Below, piece by piece: positions 3,802 to 61,176 of a stretch of 64,000 nucleotides of DNA. This DNA is from Elusimicrobia bacterium GWF2_62_30 (GTDB lineage: Bacteria > Elusimicrobiota > Elusimicrobia > Elusimicrobiales > UBA9959), in assembly GCA_001799995.1 (NCBI GenBank), contig MGUK01000007.1:25927-89926 (forward strand), written 5' to 3'. The notes under the pieces were generated by a model. That model was not told where the DNA came from and ran no database searches. It was given only the letters and a program-made list of their open reading frames with translations. The position numbers were made by a program, and so were the translations under genes. Position 1 is the stretch's first letter. Each line of letters begins with the position of its first letter.

Positions 3802-5172
3802 ATGCGCAAAAGCCTTCCCGCGGTACTCCTGCTCGTCCTCTTCTGCTGCACGGCGGCCTTCGCGCAGCCGCCCAGGAAGAAGCGCGTTCTGAAAAAACCC
3901 GGCCCCAAGGCCAAGGAAGAGATCGTAAAGATCGAGCCGAAGACCAAGGACGACATCTTAAAGACCGTCTCGCATTCCACCGCCGCCTACCAGGCGGAGG
4001 GCGGCACCCTCTCGAAGATCCTGGCCGCGATAACGATAAACACCGCGCGCGGCCCGATAATCACCTTCCCCGTCGTCGATTCGAGCAAGGACCTCGGCCC
4101 GAGCTTCGGCATCATGCCGGTCATCGCGATAAAGAACAGGACGACCGGGGACATCAGATCCATACTGGTGCCCTCCGTCAGCTACAACCAGAACCTGCGC
4201 ACCACGCTCACTTACCGGCACTATATACTGCCTGACGACAAGCGCTTCTTCATCCTCCGCGCCTCCCGGTCCGAAAGGGTGGAGCGGGAACTCCTGGTCT
4301 ATTACTATACGCCGCAGCTGTTTTCCACGAATATGCGGCTCAGCGCCGAAGCCAAGCACTGGGTTACGGGCAAACCGTCCTTTTACGGCTTCGGCATAAA
4401 CTCGCAGCGCGGCGACCGGTCCAACTATTCCCTGGAGATGACGGGCGAAGAGCTGATCCTGGACGTGCCGCTGCTTAAACCCTTCTTTTTAAATTTCGAC
4501 CACGCCTACTACGGCAAGCGCGTAGGCGACGGCCCCATGGACGACGGCCAGCTGGAGGCTTTTGTCCCGGCGCTTTACCGGGAAGCCTCCCGGATGCATA
4601 CCTTCCACACTAACCGCTTCTCGCTGGTGTATGACGATACCGACCACCCGGTCCTGCCCAAGATCGGCACCTACGCCAGCGCCTCGGTCATGTACTCCAA
4701 CAGGAAGCTCGGCTCCGGTTACGAGTACCGGACCTATTCCTTCCAGGCTAAGAACTACTATAACTATAAGGAAGAGGGCCGGTACGTGACCGCCATCCAC
4801 TACCTGTTGCAGTTCCAGCGCGGCGAGACCCCGCCCTTTTACGCCATGCCGCAGTTGGGAGAGAGCACCGGCCTGCGGATGGCCGGCGACGGCCGCTTCA
4901 CCGGCAGGGGCAAATTCGTCTTTAACATAGAGGAGCGCATCACGCTGTCCAAATCGCCGTTCTACAAGTTCATCAGCGAAATGGAGATCGCGCCGTTCCT
5001 CGACGTGGGCACGGTCTTCGACAAGTATTCGGAATTCACGGCGAAGGACCTCAAATACGGCCCGGGCGTCTCCGCGCGGCTGGTAATAAGGCCGCAGCTG
5101 GTGGCGACCGTAGACCTGGCCTACGGCTCCGAAGGCACCAACGCGATCATCAAGATAGGCTACCCGTTCTGA
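3802..5172 (+). CDS. Outer-membrane beta-barrel protein, Omp85/bacterial surface antigen-like
   Basis: Signal peptide MRKSLPAVLLLVLFCCTAAFAQ, alternating beta-strand pattern, and a C-terminal ...AIIKIGYPF with terminal aromatic residue. Confidence 0.55.
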   Translation: MRKSLPAVLLLVLFCCTAAFAQPPRKKRVLKKPGPKAKEEIVKIEPKTKDDILKTVSHSTAAYQAEGGTLSKILAAITINTARGPIITFPVVDSSKDLGPSFGIMPVIAIKNRTTGDIRSILVPSVSYNQNLRTTLTYRHYILPDDKRFFILRASRSERVERELLVYYYTPQLFSTNMRLSAEAKHWVTGKPSFYGFGINSQRGDRSNYSLEMTGEELILDVPLLKPFFLNFDHAYYGKRVGDGPMDDGQLEAFVPALYREASRMHTFHTNRFSLVYDDTDHPVLPKIGTYASASVMYSNRKLGSGYEYRTYSFQAKNYYNYKEEGRYVTAIHYLLQFQRGETPPFYAMPQLGESTGLRMAGDGRFTGRGKFVFNIEERITLSKSPFYKFISEMEIAPFLDVGTVFDKYSEFTAKDLKYGPGVSARLVIRPQLVATVDLAYGSEGTNAIIKIGYPF

Positions 5173-8824: not shown

Positions 8825-8871
8825 AAGCCGGCTATATTCTACCAAAACCGCCACGCAACCACGGTGGGAAG

Positions 8872-9007
8872 GCAGGACAGGGCAGGGTATGGGTTCGGCA
8901 GGCCGTCTCGCAGGGCGAGGCTTGCGTAAGCGCCGAGCCCGAGAGGGAGCGCGGCCACGGTGTGGCCGATAGCGTGCCTGCCGGGCCCATACCCTGCCAT
9001 GTCCTGC
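8872..9007 (+). repeat. Nested-palindrome intergenic element, copy A
   Basis: 31-nt inverted arms at 8872-8902 and 8977-9007. The core carries GGC-ttgcgtaagc-GCC and GGCCAC-GGT-GTGGCC hairpins. Related copies lie at 26751-26907, 26954-27098 and 51972-52154. Confidence 0.85.
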
Positions 9008-9049
9008 TTCGCGGCGCGAGGAAGCGTAGCGCACATTATGGCGGCGGTT

Positions 9050-9078
9050 TTGCATTTTGCCGCCTTTATTTATATAAT
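9050..9078 (+). promoter_or_regulatory. Candidate sigma70-type promoter of rpmH
   Basis: TTGCAT (9050-9055), 17-nt spacer, perfect TATAAT (9073-9078). The rpmH ATG is only 9 nt downstream of the -10 hexamer and no SD is visible. Confidence 0.4.
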
Positions 9079-9087
9079 TAGAGCACT

Positions 9088-9240
9088 ATGCTACCTACAT
9101 ACAGACCAAACGTACGCAAACGCAGAAAACACATCGGCTTCCGCGCCAAAATGAAAACGGCCGGCGGAAGGAAAGTGCTCGCCCGCCGCCGCAGCAAAGG
9201 CCGCTGGCAGCTTATCCCCGACATGCCGGACCAGAAATAG
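9088..9240 (+). CDS. rpmH: 50S ribosomal protein L34
   Basis: Below the track size cutoff. Translates [42 protein letters not shown]..., the L34 signature. Confidence 0.9.
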
Positions 9241-11595: not shown

Positions 11596-12732
11596 ATGAG
11601 AGAGACAAAGACAGAAGCCAAAACGATCCAGGACGCCGTCGAGAAGGGCCTTGCGGAAATGGGCCTTCGGCGCGACCAGGTCGAGGTGGTGGTAGTAACC
11701 GAAGGGACCTCGGGATTCCTCGGGTTCGGCGCTAAAAAAGCCTGCGTTATCCTCAGGGAAAAACGCTGGGCCAGCGGAACCGGCAGCGAGGAGCCGCGCG
11801 GACGCGGCCCCAGGCGCGACGGACGCGGCGGAGGCCCCAGGCGCGACGGACGCGGCGCAGGCCCCAGGCGCGAAGGCGGCCCCAGACGGGAAAGCCGTTC
11901 CGCCTCAGCCCCCAGGCGCCCCGGGCGCTACGGCTACGAAGACGCCAGGCTCCCGCCTGCGGCGTCCACGGAAGAACAACAGCAGCAGCCCCGTCCCGAA
12001 CGCGGGCCGAGAAGAGAGGGCGGCTACCAGGGCGGGTCACGGGACCGCGTCTACAAGGAAGAGCCCCTTGCGGCGGACTTCATGTCCATACAGCCCGCAC
12101 AGGACCCTGTGGAGCACGCGAAAGCCGCGCTGCTCAAGATAACCTCACTGATGGGGATGGAAACGACGGTGACCGAAGCCAGGCTCGAATCGGCGGAGAA
12201 CCTTATCTTCATCCGCTTCGAGTGCGCGGACCACACCGCGTTCACCGAAGAGAACGGGCGCGGGCTGCAGTCCCTGCAGTTCGTCGTCAACTCGATAGTC
12301 AGCCGCAAGCGCGAGCCGCACCCGGCCCTGCGCCTTGACACCGGCGGCTACTGGGACAAGAAAGAAAAGGAACTGGCCCGCCTGGTGGAGGACGCCGTCA
12401 ACTCTGTAAAGAGCACCGCCGCCCCGTTCAGGCTGGACCCCATGCCCGCTTCCATGAGGAAGATGGTGCATAACATGGTTAAGACCTCGTACCCCGGGAT
12501 GGAAACCACCTCCGAGGGCGAGGGCCGCTGGCGCAAAGTGGTGATCCGCCAGACGGAAACCGCGCAGACGGGAACCGTGCAGACGGAAACCGCGCAGGCG
12601 GAAGCCGTGCAGGCGGAAGCCGTGCGGACGGAAACCGCGCAGGCGGTAGCCGCCCCTGCCGCGGAAGCGGCGCCCGAGCAGGCGCCCGCCGTAGAGCAGA
12701 CGGTGGAAACGCAGCCTACAGAGCAGAAATAA
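11596..12732 (+). CDS. khpB: Jag/KhpB RNA-binding protein (Jag_N, KH, R3H) with low-complexity inserts
   Basis: Jag_N N-terminus (KTIQDAVEKGLAEMGL...VVVVTEGTSGFLGFG) and R3H-like C-terminal part (RLDPMPASMRKMVHNMV...). Conserved position after yidC. Confidence 0.8.
   Translation: MRETKTEAKTIQDAVEKGLAEMGLRRDQVEVVVVTEGTSGFLGFGAKKACVILREKRWASGTGSEEPRGRGPRRDGRGGGPRRDGRGAGPRREGGPRRESRSASAPRRPGRYGYEDARLPPAASTEEQQQQPRPERGPRREGGYQGGSRDRVYKEEPLAADFMSIQPAQDPVEHAKAALLKITSLMGMETTVTEARLESAENLIFIRFECADHTAFTEENGRGLQSLQFVVNSIVSRKREPHPALRLDTGGYWDKKEKELARLVEDAVNSVKSTAAPFRLDPMPASMRKMVHNMVKTSYPGMETTSEGEGRWRKVVIRQTETAQTGTVQTETAQAEAVQAEAVRTETAQAVAAPAAEAAPEQAPAVEQTVETQPTEQK
11806..11892 (+). repeat. 27-bp tandem repeat (about 3 units) inside jag, encoding GPRRDGRGG units
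   Basis: ggccccaggcgcgacggacgcggcgga repeats at 11806, 11833 and 11860 (degenerating). It is in frame and gives an Arg/Gly-rich linker. Confidence 0.8.
12550..12654 (+). repeat. 15-bp periodic tandem repeat (7 units) at the jag 3' end
   Basis: cagacggaaaccgcg-like units encode QTETA/QTGTV/QAEAV pentapeptide repeats. Confidence 0.8.
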
Positions 12733-26750: not shown

Positions 26751-26907
26751 AGTCGGGACGGTCACGGGGTGAGGGTTATCAAAACGCGCTCGGCACACCG
26801 TGCCTCGCTCTTCCTCCGGGCAAGAAAGTGTCGCTTCGCTCCACGCGGCGCTATGCAAGCCTCGGCCTCCGGAAGGGTTTGCTAACCCTCACCCCGTGCC
26901 CATCCCT
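26751..26907 (-). repeat. Nested-palindrome intergenic element, copy B1 (inverted orientation)
   Basis: Arms cacggggtgagggtta / taaccctcaccccgtg. The reverse complement carries gaggcttgcatagcgcc and GGCAC-GGT-GTGCC core hairpins. Confidence 0.8.
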
Positions 26908-26953
26908 CCAGTCCTCTCAATTGCATTTTAGTGAAACTCTCAGGTCTCGCCTA

Positions 26954-27098
26954 GTCCGGAGGGGCGGACGCGGGGACCGGGTTAGCAAAACCTTCCGACG
27001 ACCGAGCCTTGCGTAAGCGGCGAGGGAGGAGGATGAGCGACGGGCACGGTGTGCCCTAGCGCGTTTTGCGTTCCGGTCCCCACGGCCACCCCGACCGG
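26954..27098 (+). repeat. Nested-palindrome intergenic element, copy B2
   Basis: Arms ggggaccgggttagcaaaac / gttttgcgttccggtcccc. Core gagccttgcgtaagcggc and GGGCAC-GGT-GTGCCC. Forms an inverted pair with B1. Confidence 0.8.
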
Positions 27099-40592: not shown

Positions 40593-41312
40593 ATGAACGC
40601 GGTAGAATTGCGCGGCCTTACAAAAAAGTACAAGGATTTCGAGGCCATTTCGGGCCTGGACCTCTCCGTCGGCGCCGGGGAGATCTTCGCGCTGGTGGGC
40701 CCCAACGGGGTGGGGAAATCCACCACGCTGAAAATGATCGCCACGATACTGACCCCCACCGCCGGGACCATCTCCGTGTTCGGCCTGGACACCGTGCGCG
40801 ACGCGCACCGCGTGCGGGAGCTTATCAGCTACCTGCCCGAAGAGGCCGGGGCTTACAAGAACCTGACGGGGCGGGAATACCTGCGGTTCATGGCCATGGT
40901 CTTCCTCAAAGACCACGCCAGGGCGGAGGCCGCCACCGCTTTCGGTGAAGAGCTCTGCGGGCTGAAGGACAGGCTGAAGGACAAGATCAAGACCTACAGC
41001 AAGGGGATGGCGCGCAAGCTGCTGCTGGCGAGGGCCGTGATGATACGCCCGAAGCTGGCCATCCTCGACGAGCCCACCAGCGGCCTCGACATCGTGAACG
41101 GCTACGAGATTCGCAAGACCATCAAGCAGCTCGCCGCGGAAGGCACCACCTTCATCATCTCCAGCCACAACATGGCCGAGATAGAATTCCTTTCCGGCCG
41201 CATCGCGGTCATCAACAAGGGGAAACTCCTGGCCTGCGATACCCCGGCCGCCCTCCGGGTAAAATTCTCGACCGAAGACCTTGAAGAGGTCTTCATAGCT
41301 CTCGCCCGATGA
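40593..41312 (+). CDS. ABC transporter ATP-binding protein (ABC-2/drug-exporter type)
   Basis: Walker A GPNGVGKST, signature YSKGMARKLLLA, and Walker B ILDEPTSGLD. Confidence 0.85.
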   Translation: MNAVELRGLTKKYKDFEAISGLDLSVGAGEIFALVGPNGVGKSTTLKMIATILTPTAGTISVFGLDTVRDAHRVRELISYLPEEAGAYKNLTGREYLRFMAMVFLKDHARAEAATAFGEELCGLKDRLKDKIKTYSKGMARKLLLARAVMIRPKLAILDEPTSGLDIVNGYEIRKTIKQLAAEGTTFIISSHNMAEIEFLSGRIAVINKGKLLACDTPAALRVKFSTEDLEEVFIALAR

Positions 41313-42607
41313 ACATCTTCCTCGTCCTGTTCAAGAAAGAGATAAAAGAGCTGCTGACCCGGCAGCTCCTGATCTCCATCGCCGCCATGCTCTTCATCTT
41401 CGCGGTAATCGGCAAATCCGTGGGCAGCCACAGCCGCTCTTCCGGCGTGCGCAACTCCGTAGTGCTGCTCGACCTGGACCGCTCGCCGCTTTCCAAGCGC
41501 ATCGCCGGGGCCATGCGCAAGGCAAAGGCTGAGATCCTGCCCTCCGGGGCGGCGAACATCGCGGCCGCGCTGGCCGACCCGCAGTTCGCGGGGGAGAACT
41601 CTTTCATCCTGCTCCCGGCCGGGCTCGAAAAGGACGTGGCGGGGCAGAAGGCTTCGCGCGTGGAGTATTACTCGCGCTTCCGCCGGGACGCTTCCGGCCT
41701 GGGGCCGGCGCTCGCGGCCGGAAGGGTCAGGAAGCTTTCCACCGCGGTTTCCGGCGCGGTGAGCGCCTGGGCGCTGGAGCGCCGGCTGCCGGGGCTCTCC
41801 GCGGACCTGTTGAAGGACCCCGCTCCGGCCAGGGAATTCGCGGTGATAGACGGCCGCATGGAACAGGTACCGGTGGCGCAGGTGGTGGCCTTCATGCAGT
41901 CCCAGTCCTATTTTTTCCCGATGGCGGTCTTCTTTATAGTAATGCTGTCCGCGCAGATGATCATGACCTCGGTGGCGAGCGAAAAAGAGAACAAAACGCT
42001 GGAAACGCTTTTGAGCTCCCCGGTGGACAGGCGCCTGCTGGTGCTGTCGAAGCTCGCCGCTTCCACGTCGATCGCGGCCGCGCTGTCGCTGGCGTACATG
42101 CTGGGCATGCGCTCGTTCATGTCCGGGATAAACAGCATAGCCGGAGCGGGCCCCGCCGCGGCGGCCTCGGAGGCGCTGGCGCGGCTCGGCCTCGTAATGA
42201 CCCCGTCCGGATACCTGCTCACCGGGCTCTCGGTGCTGTTCTGCATTCTCTGCGCCATCTCCATGGCGTTCATCCTGGGCATCCTTGCCGAGGACGTAAA
42301 AAGCGTGCAGACGCTGCTCACGCCCCTGATGATGCCGCTGATGCTGGCCTACCTGCTCCCCATCTTCATCGACCTGAGCACCGCCAACTTCGGGATAAAA
42401 TTCCTGCTCTACGCCATCCCGTTCACGCACGCTTTCATGGCCCCGCAGAACATCCTGATGGGCAATATCCAGCAGGTGCTCTACGGCATAGCTTACCAGG
42501 CCGCGGTCTTCGCGGCTTTCGTCCTGCTGGCCGCCAGGCTGTTCTCGGGGGACGCGCTGCTCACGCTGCGCATCAAGGGCTTTAAGTTCGGAGGAGGCGG
42601 AAGATGA
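41309..42607 (+). CDS. ABC-2 type transporter permease
   Basis: N-terminal TM helix, large extracytoplasmic loop, and a C-terminal bundle of five TM helices. ATGA overlap with the ATPase gene. Confidence 0.7.
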   Translation: MNIFLVLFKKEIKELLTRQLLISIAAMLFIFAVIGKSVGSHSRSSGVRNSVVLLDLDRSPLSKRIAGAMRKAKAEILPSGAANIAAALADPQFAGENSFILLPAGLEKDVAGQKASRVEYYSRFRRDASGLGPALAAGRVRKLSTAVSGAVSAWALERRLPGLSADLLKDPAPAREFAVIDGRMEQVPVAQVVAFMQSQSYFFPMAVFFIVMLSAQMIMTSVASEKENKTLETLLSSPVDRRLLVLSKLAASTSIAAALSLAYMLGMRSFMSGINSIAGAGPAAAASEALARLGLVMTPSGYLLTGLSVLFCILCAISMAFILGILAEDVKSVQTLLTPLMMPLMLAYLLPIFIDLSTANFGIKFLLYAIPFTHAFMAPQNILMGNIQQVLYGIAYQAAVFAAFVLLAARLFSGDALLTLRIKGFKFGGGGR

Positions 42608-51948: not shown

Positions 51949-51971
51949 GAGTTCTCCGGGATCAGATCATG

Positions 51972-52154
51972 CCGGAGGGGTGGCGAGGGCATGGGTTCGG
52001 CGGGCCCTGTCGGGGTGGAGCGAAGCGACACTTCCCCGCGCGAGGCTTGCGTAAGCGCCGAGCCCGGATAGCCGAAGGCTAGGTCCCCGAGAGGAGCGCG
52101 GCCACGGTGTGGCCGACGCGGTGCCCGCCGGGCCCATACCCTCGACACCCCGAC
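51972..52154 (+). repeat. Nested-palindrome intergenic element, copy C
   Basis: 32-nt arms near 51975-52006 and 52123-52154. Core identical to copy A (gaggcttgcgtaagcgccgagccc ... gagcgcggccacggtgtggccga) with an extra 23-nt hairpin insert ggatagccgaaggctaggtcccc. Confidence 0.85.
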
Positions 52155-59226: not shown

Positions 59227-59338
59227 TGGTGGACGTGACAGGGATCGAACCTGCGACCTCCTCGTTGCTCACTCGGCCTCTGGCGGCCTTCCGGCCGCCA
59301 GCGCCTCGTTCGAGGATACACGTCTCTGCTGCTACTCT
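59227..59338 (-). pseudogene. tRNA-Ala-derived unit d: exact 41-nt tRNA 3' part (anticodon-loop CAA to CCA) preceded by a hairpin insert and a degenerate 5' part
   Basis: 59227-59267 is identical to the 3' 41 nt of the intact tRNA. Upstream on the minus strand: CCTCG-AA-CGAGG, then GC-rich insert containing the CTGGCGGCC-GGAA-GGCCGCCAG hairpin. Confidence 0.7.
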
Positions 59339-59345
59339 AAAGATC

Positions 59346-59421
59346 TGGTGGACGTGACAGGGATCGAACCTGCGACCTCCTCGTTGCGAACGAGGCGCTC
59401 TCCCAACTGAGCTACACGCCC
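59346..59421 (-). tRNA. tRNA-Ala (anticodon CGC), CCA encoded
   Basis: GGGCGTGTAGCTCAGTTGGGAGAGCGCCTCGTTCGCAACGAGGAGGTCGCAGGTTCGATCCCTGTCACGTCCACCA folds into a full cloverleaf with the G3:U70 alanine identity pair and anticodon loop TTCGCAA. Confidence 0.92.
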
Positions 59422-59531
59422 AAATCTGTTTCGGAGATCGAACCTGCGACCTCCTCGTTGCTCACTTCGGGCTCGGCGTCCTGCTGGCCGCCAGCGCCCT
59501 GCGGGCGCTCTCCCAACTGAGCTACACGCCC
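59422..59531 (-). pseudogene. tRNA-Ala-derived unit b (110 nt): 5' 28 nt and internal 26 nt of the tRNA, 42-nt insert at the anticodon position, no 3' acceptor strand
   Basis: GGGCGTGTAGCTCAGTTGGGAGAGCGCC + CGCAGGGCGCTGGCGGCCAGCAGGACGCCGAGCCCGAAGTGA + GCAACGAGGAGGTCGCAGGTTCGATC + TCCGAAACAGATTT. Confidence 0.75.
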
Positions 59532-59641
59532 AAATCTGTTTCGGAGATCGACCCTGCGACCTCCTCGTTGCTCACTTCGGGCTCGGCGTCCTGCTGGCCG
59601 CCAGCGCCCTCCGGGCGCTCTCCCAACTGAGCTACACGCCC
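59532..59641 (-). pseudogene. tRNA-Ala-derived unit a (110 nt), tandem copy of unit b
   Basis: Differs from unit b at two positions (GCA to GGA in the hairpin triloop, and GGTTCG to GGGTCG). Begins 10 nt after the mltG stop. Confidence 0.75.
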
Positions 59642-59650
59642 AAAAAACGT

Positions 59651-60619
59651 TTATTTCCCTTCTTTCGCCGCTTTCTCTATGCTCTTCTTGGCTTTAAGAT
59701 GCTCTTTAAAATTCGCGTTAAAGATGTGCTTTCCTTTACGGTCGGCCACAAAATACAGCGCGTCGAAATTAGCCGGCGCCAGGGCCGCTTCTATCGAACT
59801 GCGGCCGGGGTTGCATATCGGCCCCGGGGGAAGCCCGTTCACGACATACGTGTTGTAAGGCGACTTGACCTTGAGGTCCTTGTACGTAAGCCCCTTCTTC
59901 CAGTACGTCTGCCCTTTTTCCGAGTAGCCGAGAGCGTACTGCGTGGTCGGGTCGGCCTCAAGCGCCATCTTCCTGCGGTAGCGGTTGATGTACACCGCCG
60001 CTATCAGCGGCCGCTCGCTGTCATCCACCGCCTCGCGCTCCACTATGGACGCTATAATGAGGGTTTTCGGCTCATCCAGCCCCGCGGCGAAACCTTTAGA
60101 GAACAGAGACCTTACCTGCCTGTCGAATTCTGATTTTAGCAAATTTATCACTTCCTGCGGCGGCATATTTTTTTTCAGATGGTACGTCGAAGGGAAAAGA
60201 TAGCCCTCCAGCTTCTGAGCGCGGGCCAGCTCCAGGAACTTCGCCGCCGGGGCGATACCGTTGGCCTCGAGTCTTTCGGCCACCTGCTCCATGCGCCACC
60301 CTTCAGGCAGCACCACTTTCACGGAGGTTATATAGACGCTGTGCGTCAGCCGCCACAGGGCTTCTTCCGCCGACATATATTCCCGCAGGGAATATTCCCC
60401 GGGCATTATGCGCTTGCCGGTGCCGGTCACCTTCACCAGCAGCTTGAACCAGGTCCCGCTCAGGATGATGCCCCGCTCCTTGAGTATGGCGGCGGCCTGC
60501 CTTGCGGTAGCGCCTTCCGGGATGGCGACCGCAGCCGGTTTACCGGGCCAGAAAAGATAGACCGAGAGGAGCAGCAGCGCTGCCGCGGTGAAACCCAGAA
60601 GTAATTTAAATTTCCTCAT
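59651..60619 (-). CDS. mltG: Endolytic murein transglycosylase MltG (YceG-like)
   Basis: N-terminal TM helix. EGYLFPSTY, ASIVEREA and SPYNTYVVNGLPPGPICNPG motifs. Confidence 0.88.
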   Translation of the reverse strand: MRKFKLLLGFTAAALLLLSVYLFWPGKPAAVAIPEGATARQAAAILKERGIILSGTWFKLLVKVTGTGKRIMPGEYSLREYMSAEEALWRLTHSVYITSVKVVLPEGWRMEQVAERLEANGIAPAAKFLELARAQKLEGYLFPSTYHLKKNMPPQEVINLLKSEFDRQVRSLFSKGFAAGLDEPKTLIIASIVEREAVDDSERPLIAAVYINRYRRKMALEADPTTQYALGYSEKGQTYWKKGLTYKDLKVKSPYNTYVVNGLPPGPICNPGRSSIEAALAPANFDALYFVADRKGKHIFNANFKEHLKAKKSIEKAAKEGK

Positions 60620-61176
60620 AAAAGACTTTTCGAGACTATCTTCCTGTACACCGGCCCTTCCGGGGAACTCACGCTCTGCATAAGGTCCACCGAAGCTATC
60701 GCCGAAGAAACCCTTTTGGCGGAAGCGTAATCCGCGGCCCTCCGAAAAAAGTTATCGGGCAACTGGCGTTTTACCCGGCCCAGCGTGATATGCGGCTCAA
60801 AACGGTCCTCGAACTGTATCCCGCCCGCCGTAAGGGCCTCCGCCAGCCTGCCATTGACGCCACGCAGGAGTTCCGCTCCTTCCGCCACGGATATCCACAG
60901 CACCCTGGGATTCCGGGAAGAGGGGAAGGCCCCGAGCCCTCCCGAGCCCACCCTGAACGCGCGGCAGCCTTCCAGTGCCGACTCCATGATGCGCGCTACC
61001 GGGGCCGCGTCCGGGACCTCGCCCAGGAAGACATACGTAAGGTGGAGGTTGCGGCCTTCCACCCATTTTACGCTGTCTTTGCCCGCCTTATCCCGCGCGT
61101 AGTCACGGATATCTTCCAGCACTTTGAGAAAACCCGGTTCGAACGACGAAGCGATGAAAAGCCTCATCCCGGTCAT
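60616..61176 (-). CDS. thpR: RNA 2',3'-cyclic phosphodiesterase (2H phosphoesterase, ThpR/LigT)
   Basis: Two HxT/S motifs: NLHLTYVFLGE and EPHITLGR. MRLFIA N-terminus. Confidence 0.8.
   Translation of the reverse strand: MTGMRLFIASSFEPGFLKVLEDIRDYARDKAGKDSVKWVEGRNLHLTYVFLGEVPDAAPVARIMESALEGCRAFRVGSGGLGAFPSSRNPRVLWISVAEGAELLRGVNGRLAEALTAGGIQFEDRFEPHITLGRVKRQLPDNFFRRAADYASAKRVSSAIASVDLMQSVSSPEGPVYRKIVSKSLL

Follow-up and report, generated by a model that had tools for sequence, protein, structure and literature searches.

ARAGORN and Rfam identified a single tRNA gene in the window, by which we mean the whole 64,000-nucleotide stretch of Elusimicrobia bacterium GWF2_62_30 DNA analysed here; its source is a metagenome-assembled genome of a groundwater Elusimicrobiales bacterium. 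This gene, tRNA-Ala(CGC), occupies 59346-59421 on the minus strand (Rfam tRNA, 67.7 bits) and is the only functional tRNA of an array that reads, 5' to 3' on that strand, mltG stop codon, unit a, unit b, intact tRNA, 30-nt spacer, unit d, a 176-aa ORF (ORF176) and asnS. Units a and b, which we refer to as a-type, are partial copies derived from tRNA-Ala and together form a 110-nt tandem repeat. Unit a (59532-59641, minus strand) is made up of tRNA positions 1-28 (59641-59614), a 44-nt module (59613-59570), tRNA positions 37 to approximately 60 (59569-59546) and an unrelated 14-nt tail; unit b (59422-59531, minus strand) is 98% identical to it, ends in a 14-nt tail as well, and has its module at 59460-59503. 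Within both units the module stands in for tRNA positions 29-36, that is, three stem bases and U32-C36 of the anticodon loop, anticodon included. In unit b it consists of CGCAG, the sequence GGCGCT (an inverted repeat of the tRNA sequence AGCGCC), an imperfect hairpin GGCGGCC-AGCA-GGACGCC and GAGCCCGAAGTGAGC. Besides positions 29-36, the 3' strands of the T-stem and the acceptor stem are missing from units a and b; neither unit was called as a tRNA by ARAGORN or Rfam, and neither has a complete cloverleaf. Since the a-type units have lost the 3' T-stem and acceptor strands they cannot be tRNAs, and units a and b, whose module an earlier note on this DNA treated as an insert at the anticodon position, are in fact truncated tRNA-derived copies.

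Downstream of the intact gene lies unit d (59315-59227), which we refer to as d-type. Its leader and module occupy 59267-59315 on the minus strand. The leader, CCTCG-AA-CGAGGCGCT, is an antisense copy of the tRNA anticodon arm and the 3' strand of the D-stem from which TTGCG has been deleted; its segment CGAACGAGGCGCT repeats tRNA positions 23-35 in inverted orientation without mismatch over 13 nt. Downstream of the leader come a perfect hairpin, CTGGCGGCC-GGAA-GGCCGCCAG, and AGGCCGAGTGAGC. The 3' half of the unit (59227-59266, minus strand) is a perfect 40-nt copy of tRNA positions 37-76, CCA included, so that 59266-59227 is identical to 59385-59346 in the manner of an att-type direct repeat, starting at A37. 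With permissive E values, Rfam returned a weak tRNA match across unit d (20.7 bits, 59230-59325), and across this array and those of two relatives it returned only tRNA and junk or sub-threshold tmRNA matches; no T-box was found, and the tmRNA-like T-arm matches (12-28 bits) fell below the gathering score of 47. In every d-type unit the tRNA 3' half (59227-59266 here) can fold, according to RNAalifold, into an acceptor/T-arm minihelix in which GGAGGUC/CACGUCC is paired at 5/7 positions and which ends in ACCA; this predicted minihelix could be a processing substrate. We also observed a gene for a LigT/ThpR-type 2',3'-cyclic phosphodiesterase of the RNA ligase family (60616-61176, minus strand) that overlaps the start of mltG and is syntenic with the tRNA array in nearly all fetched relatives (it was not called in L007/L008).

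Split and intron-containing tRNA genes include those with archaeal BHB introns, the split tRNAs of Nanoarchaeum, and bacterial genes with group I introns in the anticodon loop. The array is similar to these in having extra sequence at the anticodon position, and separate 5'-half and 3'-half units that each lie beside a GC-rich hairpin. It differs from them in that the anticodon and three nucleotides of stem are replaced rather than interrupted, the a-type units have no 3' end, leader and trailer are same-sense instead of complementary, and an intact tRNA-Ala(CGC) lies between the units. An intron-containing tRNA was likewise rejected as an identity for units a and b: their exons are incomplete, no Rfam intron family matched even at E <=10, and the insert is 44 nt long, far below the size of a group I intron.

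The order mltG, tRNA-Ala(CGC), ORF176, asnS was found in all fetched relatives, and the syntenic arrangement of partial copies occurs in several lineages among the sampled relatives whose MltG is ~72% or more identical to that of the window. At 72-85% MltG identity a d-type unit was found in L007, L011, L013, L121, L123, L128, L129, L130 and L135; expanded forms occur in L120, L134 and L136, and the unit is missing or decayed in L009, L131, L132 and L133. The a-type unit is present in the window, in two copies, and in L011, L119, L124 and L130, the last of which has two copies with a 117-nt period and thus an independent tandem doubling. The array sequence of the window is the same in three independent assemblies (ENA, JGI and NCBI GCA_003488765.1); together with the doubling in L130, this rules out an assembly artefact. 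Three further public contigs (L004, L005 and L006) break within unit a, the NCBI contig L014 has runs of N across the array (8873-9138), and some stretches in this collection are N-masked. As these repeats break short-read assemblies, copy number in metagenome-assembled genomes (MAGs) may be unreliable.

Comparison of these loci gives an ancestral module of GGCGC(T)-GGCGGCC-AGCA-GGCCGCC-GAGCCCGAGTGAGC, whose stem occurs in compensatory variants (GGCGCC/GGCGCC, GGAGCC/GGCTCC and GGCGGC/GCCGCC). Across nine lineages the mean identity of the d-type leader and module was 87%, versus 48-53% for the flanking spacers. Conservation of leader and module, combined with compensatory changes in the stem, indicates that the module is old and constrained, and not a recent insertion. 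In the d-type unit of L135 the antisense anticodon arm is nearly complete (CTTCG-TTGCGAA-CGAGG) and precedes the module and CCGAGCACGAG; the CCTCG-AA-CGAGG of the window is an arm of the L135 type minus TTGCG, a pentamer that has been lost from most d-type units. An outer pairing between CGAGGC of the d-type leader and GCCCG, predicted by RNAalifold, was rejected, as it showed no covariation and was broken in several lineages.

Some of the relatives carry further structure at this site. An extra ~130-nt structured segment lies inside the d-like unit of L134 (3790-4085), L136 (3590-3800) and L120 (100-290), all at ~72% MltG identity; it includes AAACCGCATAGCGGTTT and CCCCGGCTCGGCG...CGCC..CGCCCTTGCGG, has opposite orientations in L134 and L136, lies at different points of the tRNA 3' half, and may be invertible or mobile. 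By eye, the extra module of L136 resembles an element core of the family described below (GGAGGCG-GTTGC-CTGCGTAGC-GCAAC-CGCCGAGCCGGGG); the family HMM gives no match there, so the likeness is one by eye only and this candidate was rejected. In the low-GC relative L132 (4065-4125 and 3990-4060) we observed an upstream pseudo-tRNA 5' half with another hairpin resembling an anticodon arm (TCCGCCTTAGGCGGA); it is without the GC-rich module, and its flanks hold tandem repeats of the heptamer CCACTGT. Where a d-type unit would be expected in L131 (69% identity), the tRNA-Ala terminator is followed by ~600 nt of GC-rich DNA (4100-4720), in which a 99-aa ORF was called on the opposite strand.

The window also contains four copies of an interspersed, imperfectly palindromic element: copy A (8866-9012, plus strand; profile E 4e-30), copies B1 (26756-26922, minus strand) and B2 (26934-27090, plus strand), which form an inverted pair, and copy C (51967-52151, plus strand), which lies between hisS and aspS, has two optional internal hairpins and carries CGCCGAGCCCGG. 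The consensus order is outer arm, CCTCCCGGAGGGCGAGGCTTGCGTAAGCGCCGAGCCCGAG, a variable stretch, the hairpin G(S)CACGGTGTG(S)C, and outer arm. Using RNAalifold on 78 copies, along with explicit pair counts, we found a core, GGGC-GA-GGC-UU-GC-GUAA-GC-GCC-GA-GCCC, with strong compensation (variants AGGC/GCCT and GGCC/GGCC). Its cells were paired in 91.9% of cases versus 79.5% in shuffles, none of which reached the real value (0/500), and sliding the 3' partners lowered core pairing to 20-45%. In the fetched DNA, 145 copies were profile-significant, with element loci in relatives L015-L118. A scan of species-representative genomes for the pattern CTTGCGTAAGCGSCGAG-N14-44-CACGGTGTG gave at least 104 matches; among the matches listed, those with a taxonomic name all came from Elusimicrobia MAGs, the others being titled just 'bacterium'. 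No plasmid matched the element, and Rfam held no family for it, a permissive-E search with copy A giving junk or sub-threshold matches only.

Crude gene calls place the elements between genes, in either orientation and preferentially at convergent gene ends, and the mixed orientation to flanking genes led us to reject a tRNA-sensing RNA in the 5'-UTR as their identity. Head-to-head inverted pairs recur (B1/B2 in the window and 1346-1675 in L011). Two kinds of optional internal hairpin, GTGGAGCGAAGCGACAC and GGTGGCCGAAGGCCAC, have fixed insertion points in the core (window 52015-52042 and 26817-26844; also L011, L024, L073, L101, L109, L113 and L116) and look like modular add-ons. The family resembles REP/ERIC/MITE-like repeats (PMC3184786, PMC3733652) in being multi-copy (at least 145), intergenic, ~150 nt long and imperfectly palindromic, in occurring in both orientations with a preference for gene 3' ends, and in having optional internal hairpins. 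It departs from them in having a conserved centre (the loop TTGCGTAA and the CACGGTGTG hairpin) and outer arms that covary without conserved terminal repeats, and in being found, among the matches listed, in Elusimicrobia MAGs only and outside any Rfam family. Two other repeats were noted in the window, namely a tandem repeat with a 15-nt period at 12535-12669 (seven overlapping 45-nt matches at 15-nt spacing, CAGACGGAAACCGCG-like) and one with a 27-nt period in three copies at 11797-11877; both are probably coding repeats in one gene.

The earlier note had pointed to a resemblance between the module of unit b and copy A, and the sequence bears this out. On the minus strand, unit b reads CGCAGGGCG (59503-59495), 16 nt, CGCCGAGCCCGA (59478-59467) and AGTGAGC (to 59460), and the plus strand of copy A reads CGCAGGGCG (8909-8917), 13 nt, CGCCGAGCCCGA (8931-8942) and then GAGGGAGC; a 9-mer and a 12-mer are thus collinear and similarly spaced. 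The likeness is to the family consensus (CCCGGAGGGCG ... GCGCCGAGCCCGAG) and is not peculiar to copy A. Unit a has CGG where unit b has CGC, so that the exact 9-mer is absent from it, yet the CGGAGGGCG of unit a equals the family consensus. Similarity is kept in the orthologous tRNA-Ala arrays of other Elusimicrobia, and part of the 12-mer is missing from the module of unit d in the window. In copy A the two words form opposite strands of the central stem, GGGC-GA-GGC-UU-GC-GUAA-GC-GCC-GA-GCCC. What module and elements have in common is only the base of a hairpin, 5' CG(C/G)AGGGCG and 3' CGCC-GA-GCCC-GAG, and the apical stem-loops differ. Furthermore, GGCG of the 9-mer is also an inverted repeat of the tRNA's own CGCC (AGCGCCC-GCA-GGGCGCT).

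To place the inserts relative to the family we used a 187-position HMM built from 119 copies. True copies gave E values of 1e-17 to 1e-33, whereas the inserts matched only HMM positions 107-124 (~17/187) at 2.4 to -1 bits (E 5-58 per 215 kb). Coding DNA matched the profile equally well, for example AAGCGCCGAGCCCG in a ligT gene, and neither the d-type module of the window (GAGGCCGAGTGAGC) nor that of L130 was matched. The inserts therefore fall outside the family, an outcome that had been named in advance as one that would count against a common origin. Missing from the inserts is the hallmark loop CTTGCGTAAG, within the apical hairpin GGC-TTGCGTAA-GC(G)CC, in place of which they have GGCGGCC-AGCA-GG(A/C)CGCC; TTGCGTAAG was found 120 times in elements, four times elsewhere and never in the arrays. 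Within the window the second hairpin, G(S)CACGGTGTG(S)C, occurs only at the four element copies and not in the inserts, and no outer inverted arms surround units a, b or d. The a-type inserts do match the pattern of the element's central stem base, xGGA-(R)G(S)C-GA ... GCC-GA-G(S)C(Y)-GAG, reading CG(C/G)A-GGGC-G ... CGCC-GA-GCCC-GA(A)G; in the elements this stem is backed by covariation. The insert is thus not a copy of the element. Nor does the element target tRNA genes or integrate at the tRNA anticodon loop: with only 2/145 element copies lying within 600 nt of any tRNA, the idea of an element targeting the tRNA-Ala anticodon loop had to be abandoned.

As both partners are GC-rich hairpins in a genome of 62% GC, they may share a stem base (GGGCG ... 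CGCCGAGCCC) by pure chance, with no evolutionary or functional link, and we regard this as a serious if lesser possibility. When 1500 random 44-mers were compared with the rest of the window, their longest exact match had a median of 12 nt, so the 12-mer alone is unremarkable; the insert itself has seven other 12-mer matches elsewhere in the window and one 18-mer match (42520-42537). The latter, rather than an element, was the best hit of a plain local alignment of the insert against the window, which was set aside as a means of linking the two. This 18-mer, CTGGCGGCCAGCAGGACG (minus strand), matches the hairpin part of the a-type insert letter for letter and lies antisense in the 3' end of an ORF (41309-42607); only ~1.3% of random 44-mers have a match this long elsewhere in the window. 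The 9-mer is common, occurring eight times in the window; 989 kb of related DNA contains 70 occurrences that belong to neither elements nor arrays. Chance is also favoured by the family-profile E values of the inserts, equalled by coding genes, and by the absence of the motif from some d-type variants. A two-block scan of 1.9 Mb placed the a-type units at the top of all non-element sequences (28.6 and 27.0 bits), with the best unrelated matches no more than 2 bits from the a-type scores (26.4 and 25.4 bits), the blocks having been picked post hoc from the match already seen. In addition, since the 9-mer and the 12-mer are strands of one covarying element stem they are not independent and count approximately once, part of the 9-mer is tRNA-derived, and where TGA follows GAG, as it does in some elements, it marks a covarying position of the stem and no conserved word.

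Several comparisons argue against coincidence. A collinear chain of the two words (total >=21, diagonal shift <=5) was attained by 0.9% of random 44-mers from the window. In the dinucleotide-shuffle control that the earlier note had proposed, the real profile score of the insert was reached in only 0.2-0.4% of shuffles (unit a, 19/5000; unit b, 10/5000), and by 1-3/5000 for the units of L011, giving p values of 0.0002-0.004 across the tested units. A search for the combined motif, which had likewise been proposed, found it eight times in elements, seven times in tRNA-Ala arrays and nowhere else on the two strands of 989 kb; the exact 12-mer CGCCGAGCCCGA occurred 20 times in elements, ten times in tRNA-Ala arrays and once elsewhere in the same ~1.9 Mb. 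When a profile of the insert was run against 971 kb, the best non-self matches were element cores (E 0.12-0.8), which made up all of the first seven matches after the arrays and 18 of the first 20, although cores account for ~2% of the database. In a MAFFT alignment, inserts and element cores differed in length at one place only, by 3 nt. Two further coincidences point in the same direction: GGCTTGCGT, found 113 times in elements and five times elsewhere, directly precedes the d-type leader of L130, and the invariant element loop TTGCGTAA is the antisense of the tRNA-Ala(CGC) anticodon loop, TTGCGAA, plus 1 nt. For the comparison made in the earlier note we estimate p at ~0.003-0.01, which is suggestive and not decisive.

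Two evolutionary routes to the resemblance were also considered. Integration of mobile elements creates partial tRNA genes through att-site duplications (van der Gulik et al. 2023, PMC9897764), and an element that recombines, through its integrase, within the anticodon loop of tRNA-Ala(CGC) might have integrated here and then been almost wholly deleted. The d-type unit would be the displaced 3' part of the tRNA (attR-like), its leader and module the remaining arm of the element, the a-type units the outcome of tandem events, and the interspersed elements miniature derivatives with the same arm motif. As with the att-site fragments of that study, which also confuse tRNA finders, a complete tRNA has a perfect direct repeat of its 3' part downstream, in this case 40 nt long and beginning exactly in the anticodon loop, a classic footprint of integration into a tRNA gene (PMC9897764). 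The duplicated block of L130 and L135 extends over the terminator that follows the tRNA, and the ~130-nt module of L134, L136 and L120, found in either orientation, could be read in the same way. In contrast to att-site fragments, however, the complete copy is not separated from the partial one by an integrase or element in any of more than 12 lineages; the two are 80 nt apart in the window, only 16-71 nt lie between the end of the tRNA and the leader across lineages, and no integrase domain was found within 10 kb in L001. Ahead of the fragment stand an antisense anticodon arm and a hairpin that is conserved and covaries, extra 5'-half copies lie upstream, and the arrangement has been kept across species and has not decayed. 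A dead scar should decay, whereas leader and module are 87% conserved with compensatory changes. An attP origin was rejected, as the junction of module and tRNA was absent from the viral contigs of IMG/VR and from phage records, the latter matching the T arm only. We therefore consider an integration scar unlikely. Conversely, the interspersed family might descend from the tRNA-linked module as a tRNA-derived dispersed repeat, its apical loop being the antisense anticodon loop of tRNA-Ala(CGC) with one added base and its stem base the GAGCCCGAG flank of the module. This would fit the likeness of the loop TTGCGTAA to TTGCGAA (one copy, in L115, is exactly TTGCGAA), the d-type unit of L135 with its near-whole antisense arm, module and CCGAGCACGAG, and the collinear blocks CCTC / TTGCG.AA / CGCCGAGCCCGAG. 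These blocks are short and were chosen post hoc, though, the profile HMM detects nothing past 17 nt, TTGCG is gone from most d-type units, and a permissive-E Rfam search with copy A found no tRNA-like arms elsewhere in the element, so that such descent appears highly improbable.

Taken together, these results identify the reported insert as one copy of a conserved GC-rich stem-loop module, with the layout GGCGC, stem, AGCA loop, return stem and GAGCCCGA(A)GTGAGC, that resides in partial gene copies derived from tRNA-Ala(CGC). The copies form a lineage-specific set in groundwater Elusimicrobiales, arranged around a single intact tRNA-Ala(CGC) between mltG and the 176-aa ORF/asnS. The a-type copies join tRNA positions 1-28, the module and positions 37 to ~60, and in the d-type copies this module stands between an antisense anticodon arm and a copy of the tRNA 3' half. 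The number of a-type copies (0, 1 or 2) probably changes by unequal recombination between the repeated 28-nt tRNA 5' pieces. Judging from sequence comparison, the module appears to be under purifying selection and to form a hairpin, which most plausibly would serve as a processing or stability hairpin in an mltG-tRNA-ORF176-asnS transcript or as a site of DNA recombination. The tRNA-linked module is not a copy of the REP/ERIC/MITE-like interspersed family, and the conserved, covarying, antisense-bearing d-type unit is a variant that falls outside both tRNA integration fragments and REP/ERIC/MITE-like repeats.

With regard to the link between insert and element, we tentatively favour, at close to even confidence, a relationship that is real but limited, consisting of a small module of common origin or of the same binding partner; set against chance, we judge it slightly more likely. 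The common origin of inserts and element family proposed in the earlier note thus survives in part: the shared stem-base motif, rarely matched by shuffles, speaks for it, and the placement of the inserts outside the family by profile speaks against it. A broader reading, which we regard as doubtful, is that the module and the ~150-nt elements belong together as two versions of a single system, specific to Elusimicrobiales and centred on tRNA-Ala(CGC). Such a system would combine an 'anti-anticodon' loop (UUGCGUAA in the element; UUGCGAA, the exact antisense, in the d-type leader) with a GCC-GA-GCCC-GAG stem base. The dispersed family would then be derived from the tRNA gene or be recognised by some factor that is active at the tRNA-Ala locus as well, and the conserved d-type unit might be the functional master or anchor copy.

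In practical terms, repeats of this array can be mis-annotated as tRNA genes or pseudogenes. If the link between insert and element is true, a clade-specific set of dispersed structured repeats would be tied to one particular tRNA gene, representing either a rare tRNA-related dispersed element in bacteria or a shared recognition motif. Regardless of that link, the tRNA gene fragments described here, which are conserved and not decaying and bear a covarying hairpin and an antisense anticodon arm, argue for a function in the processing of tRNA or operon RNA, or in recombination.
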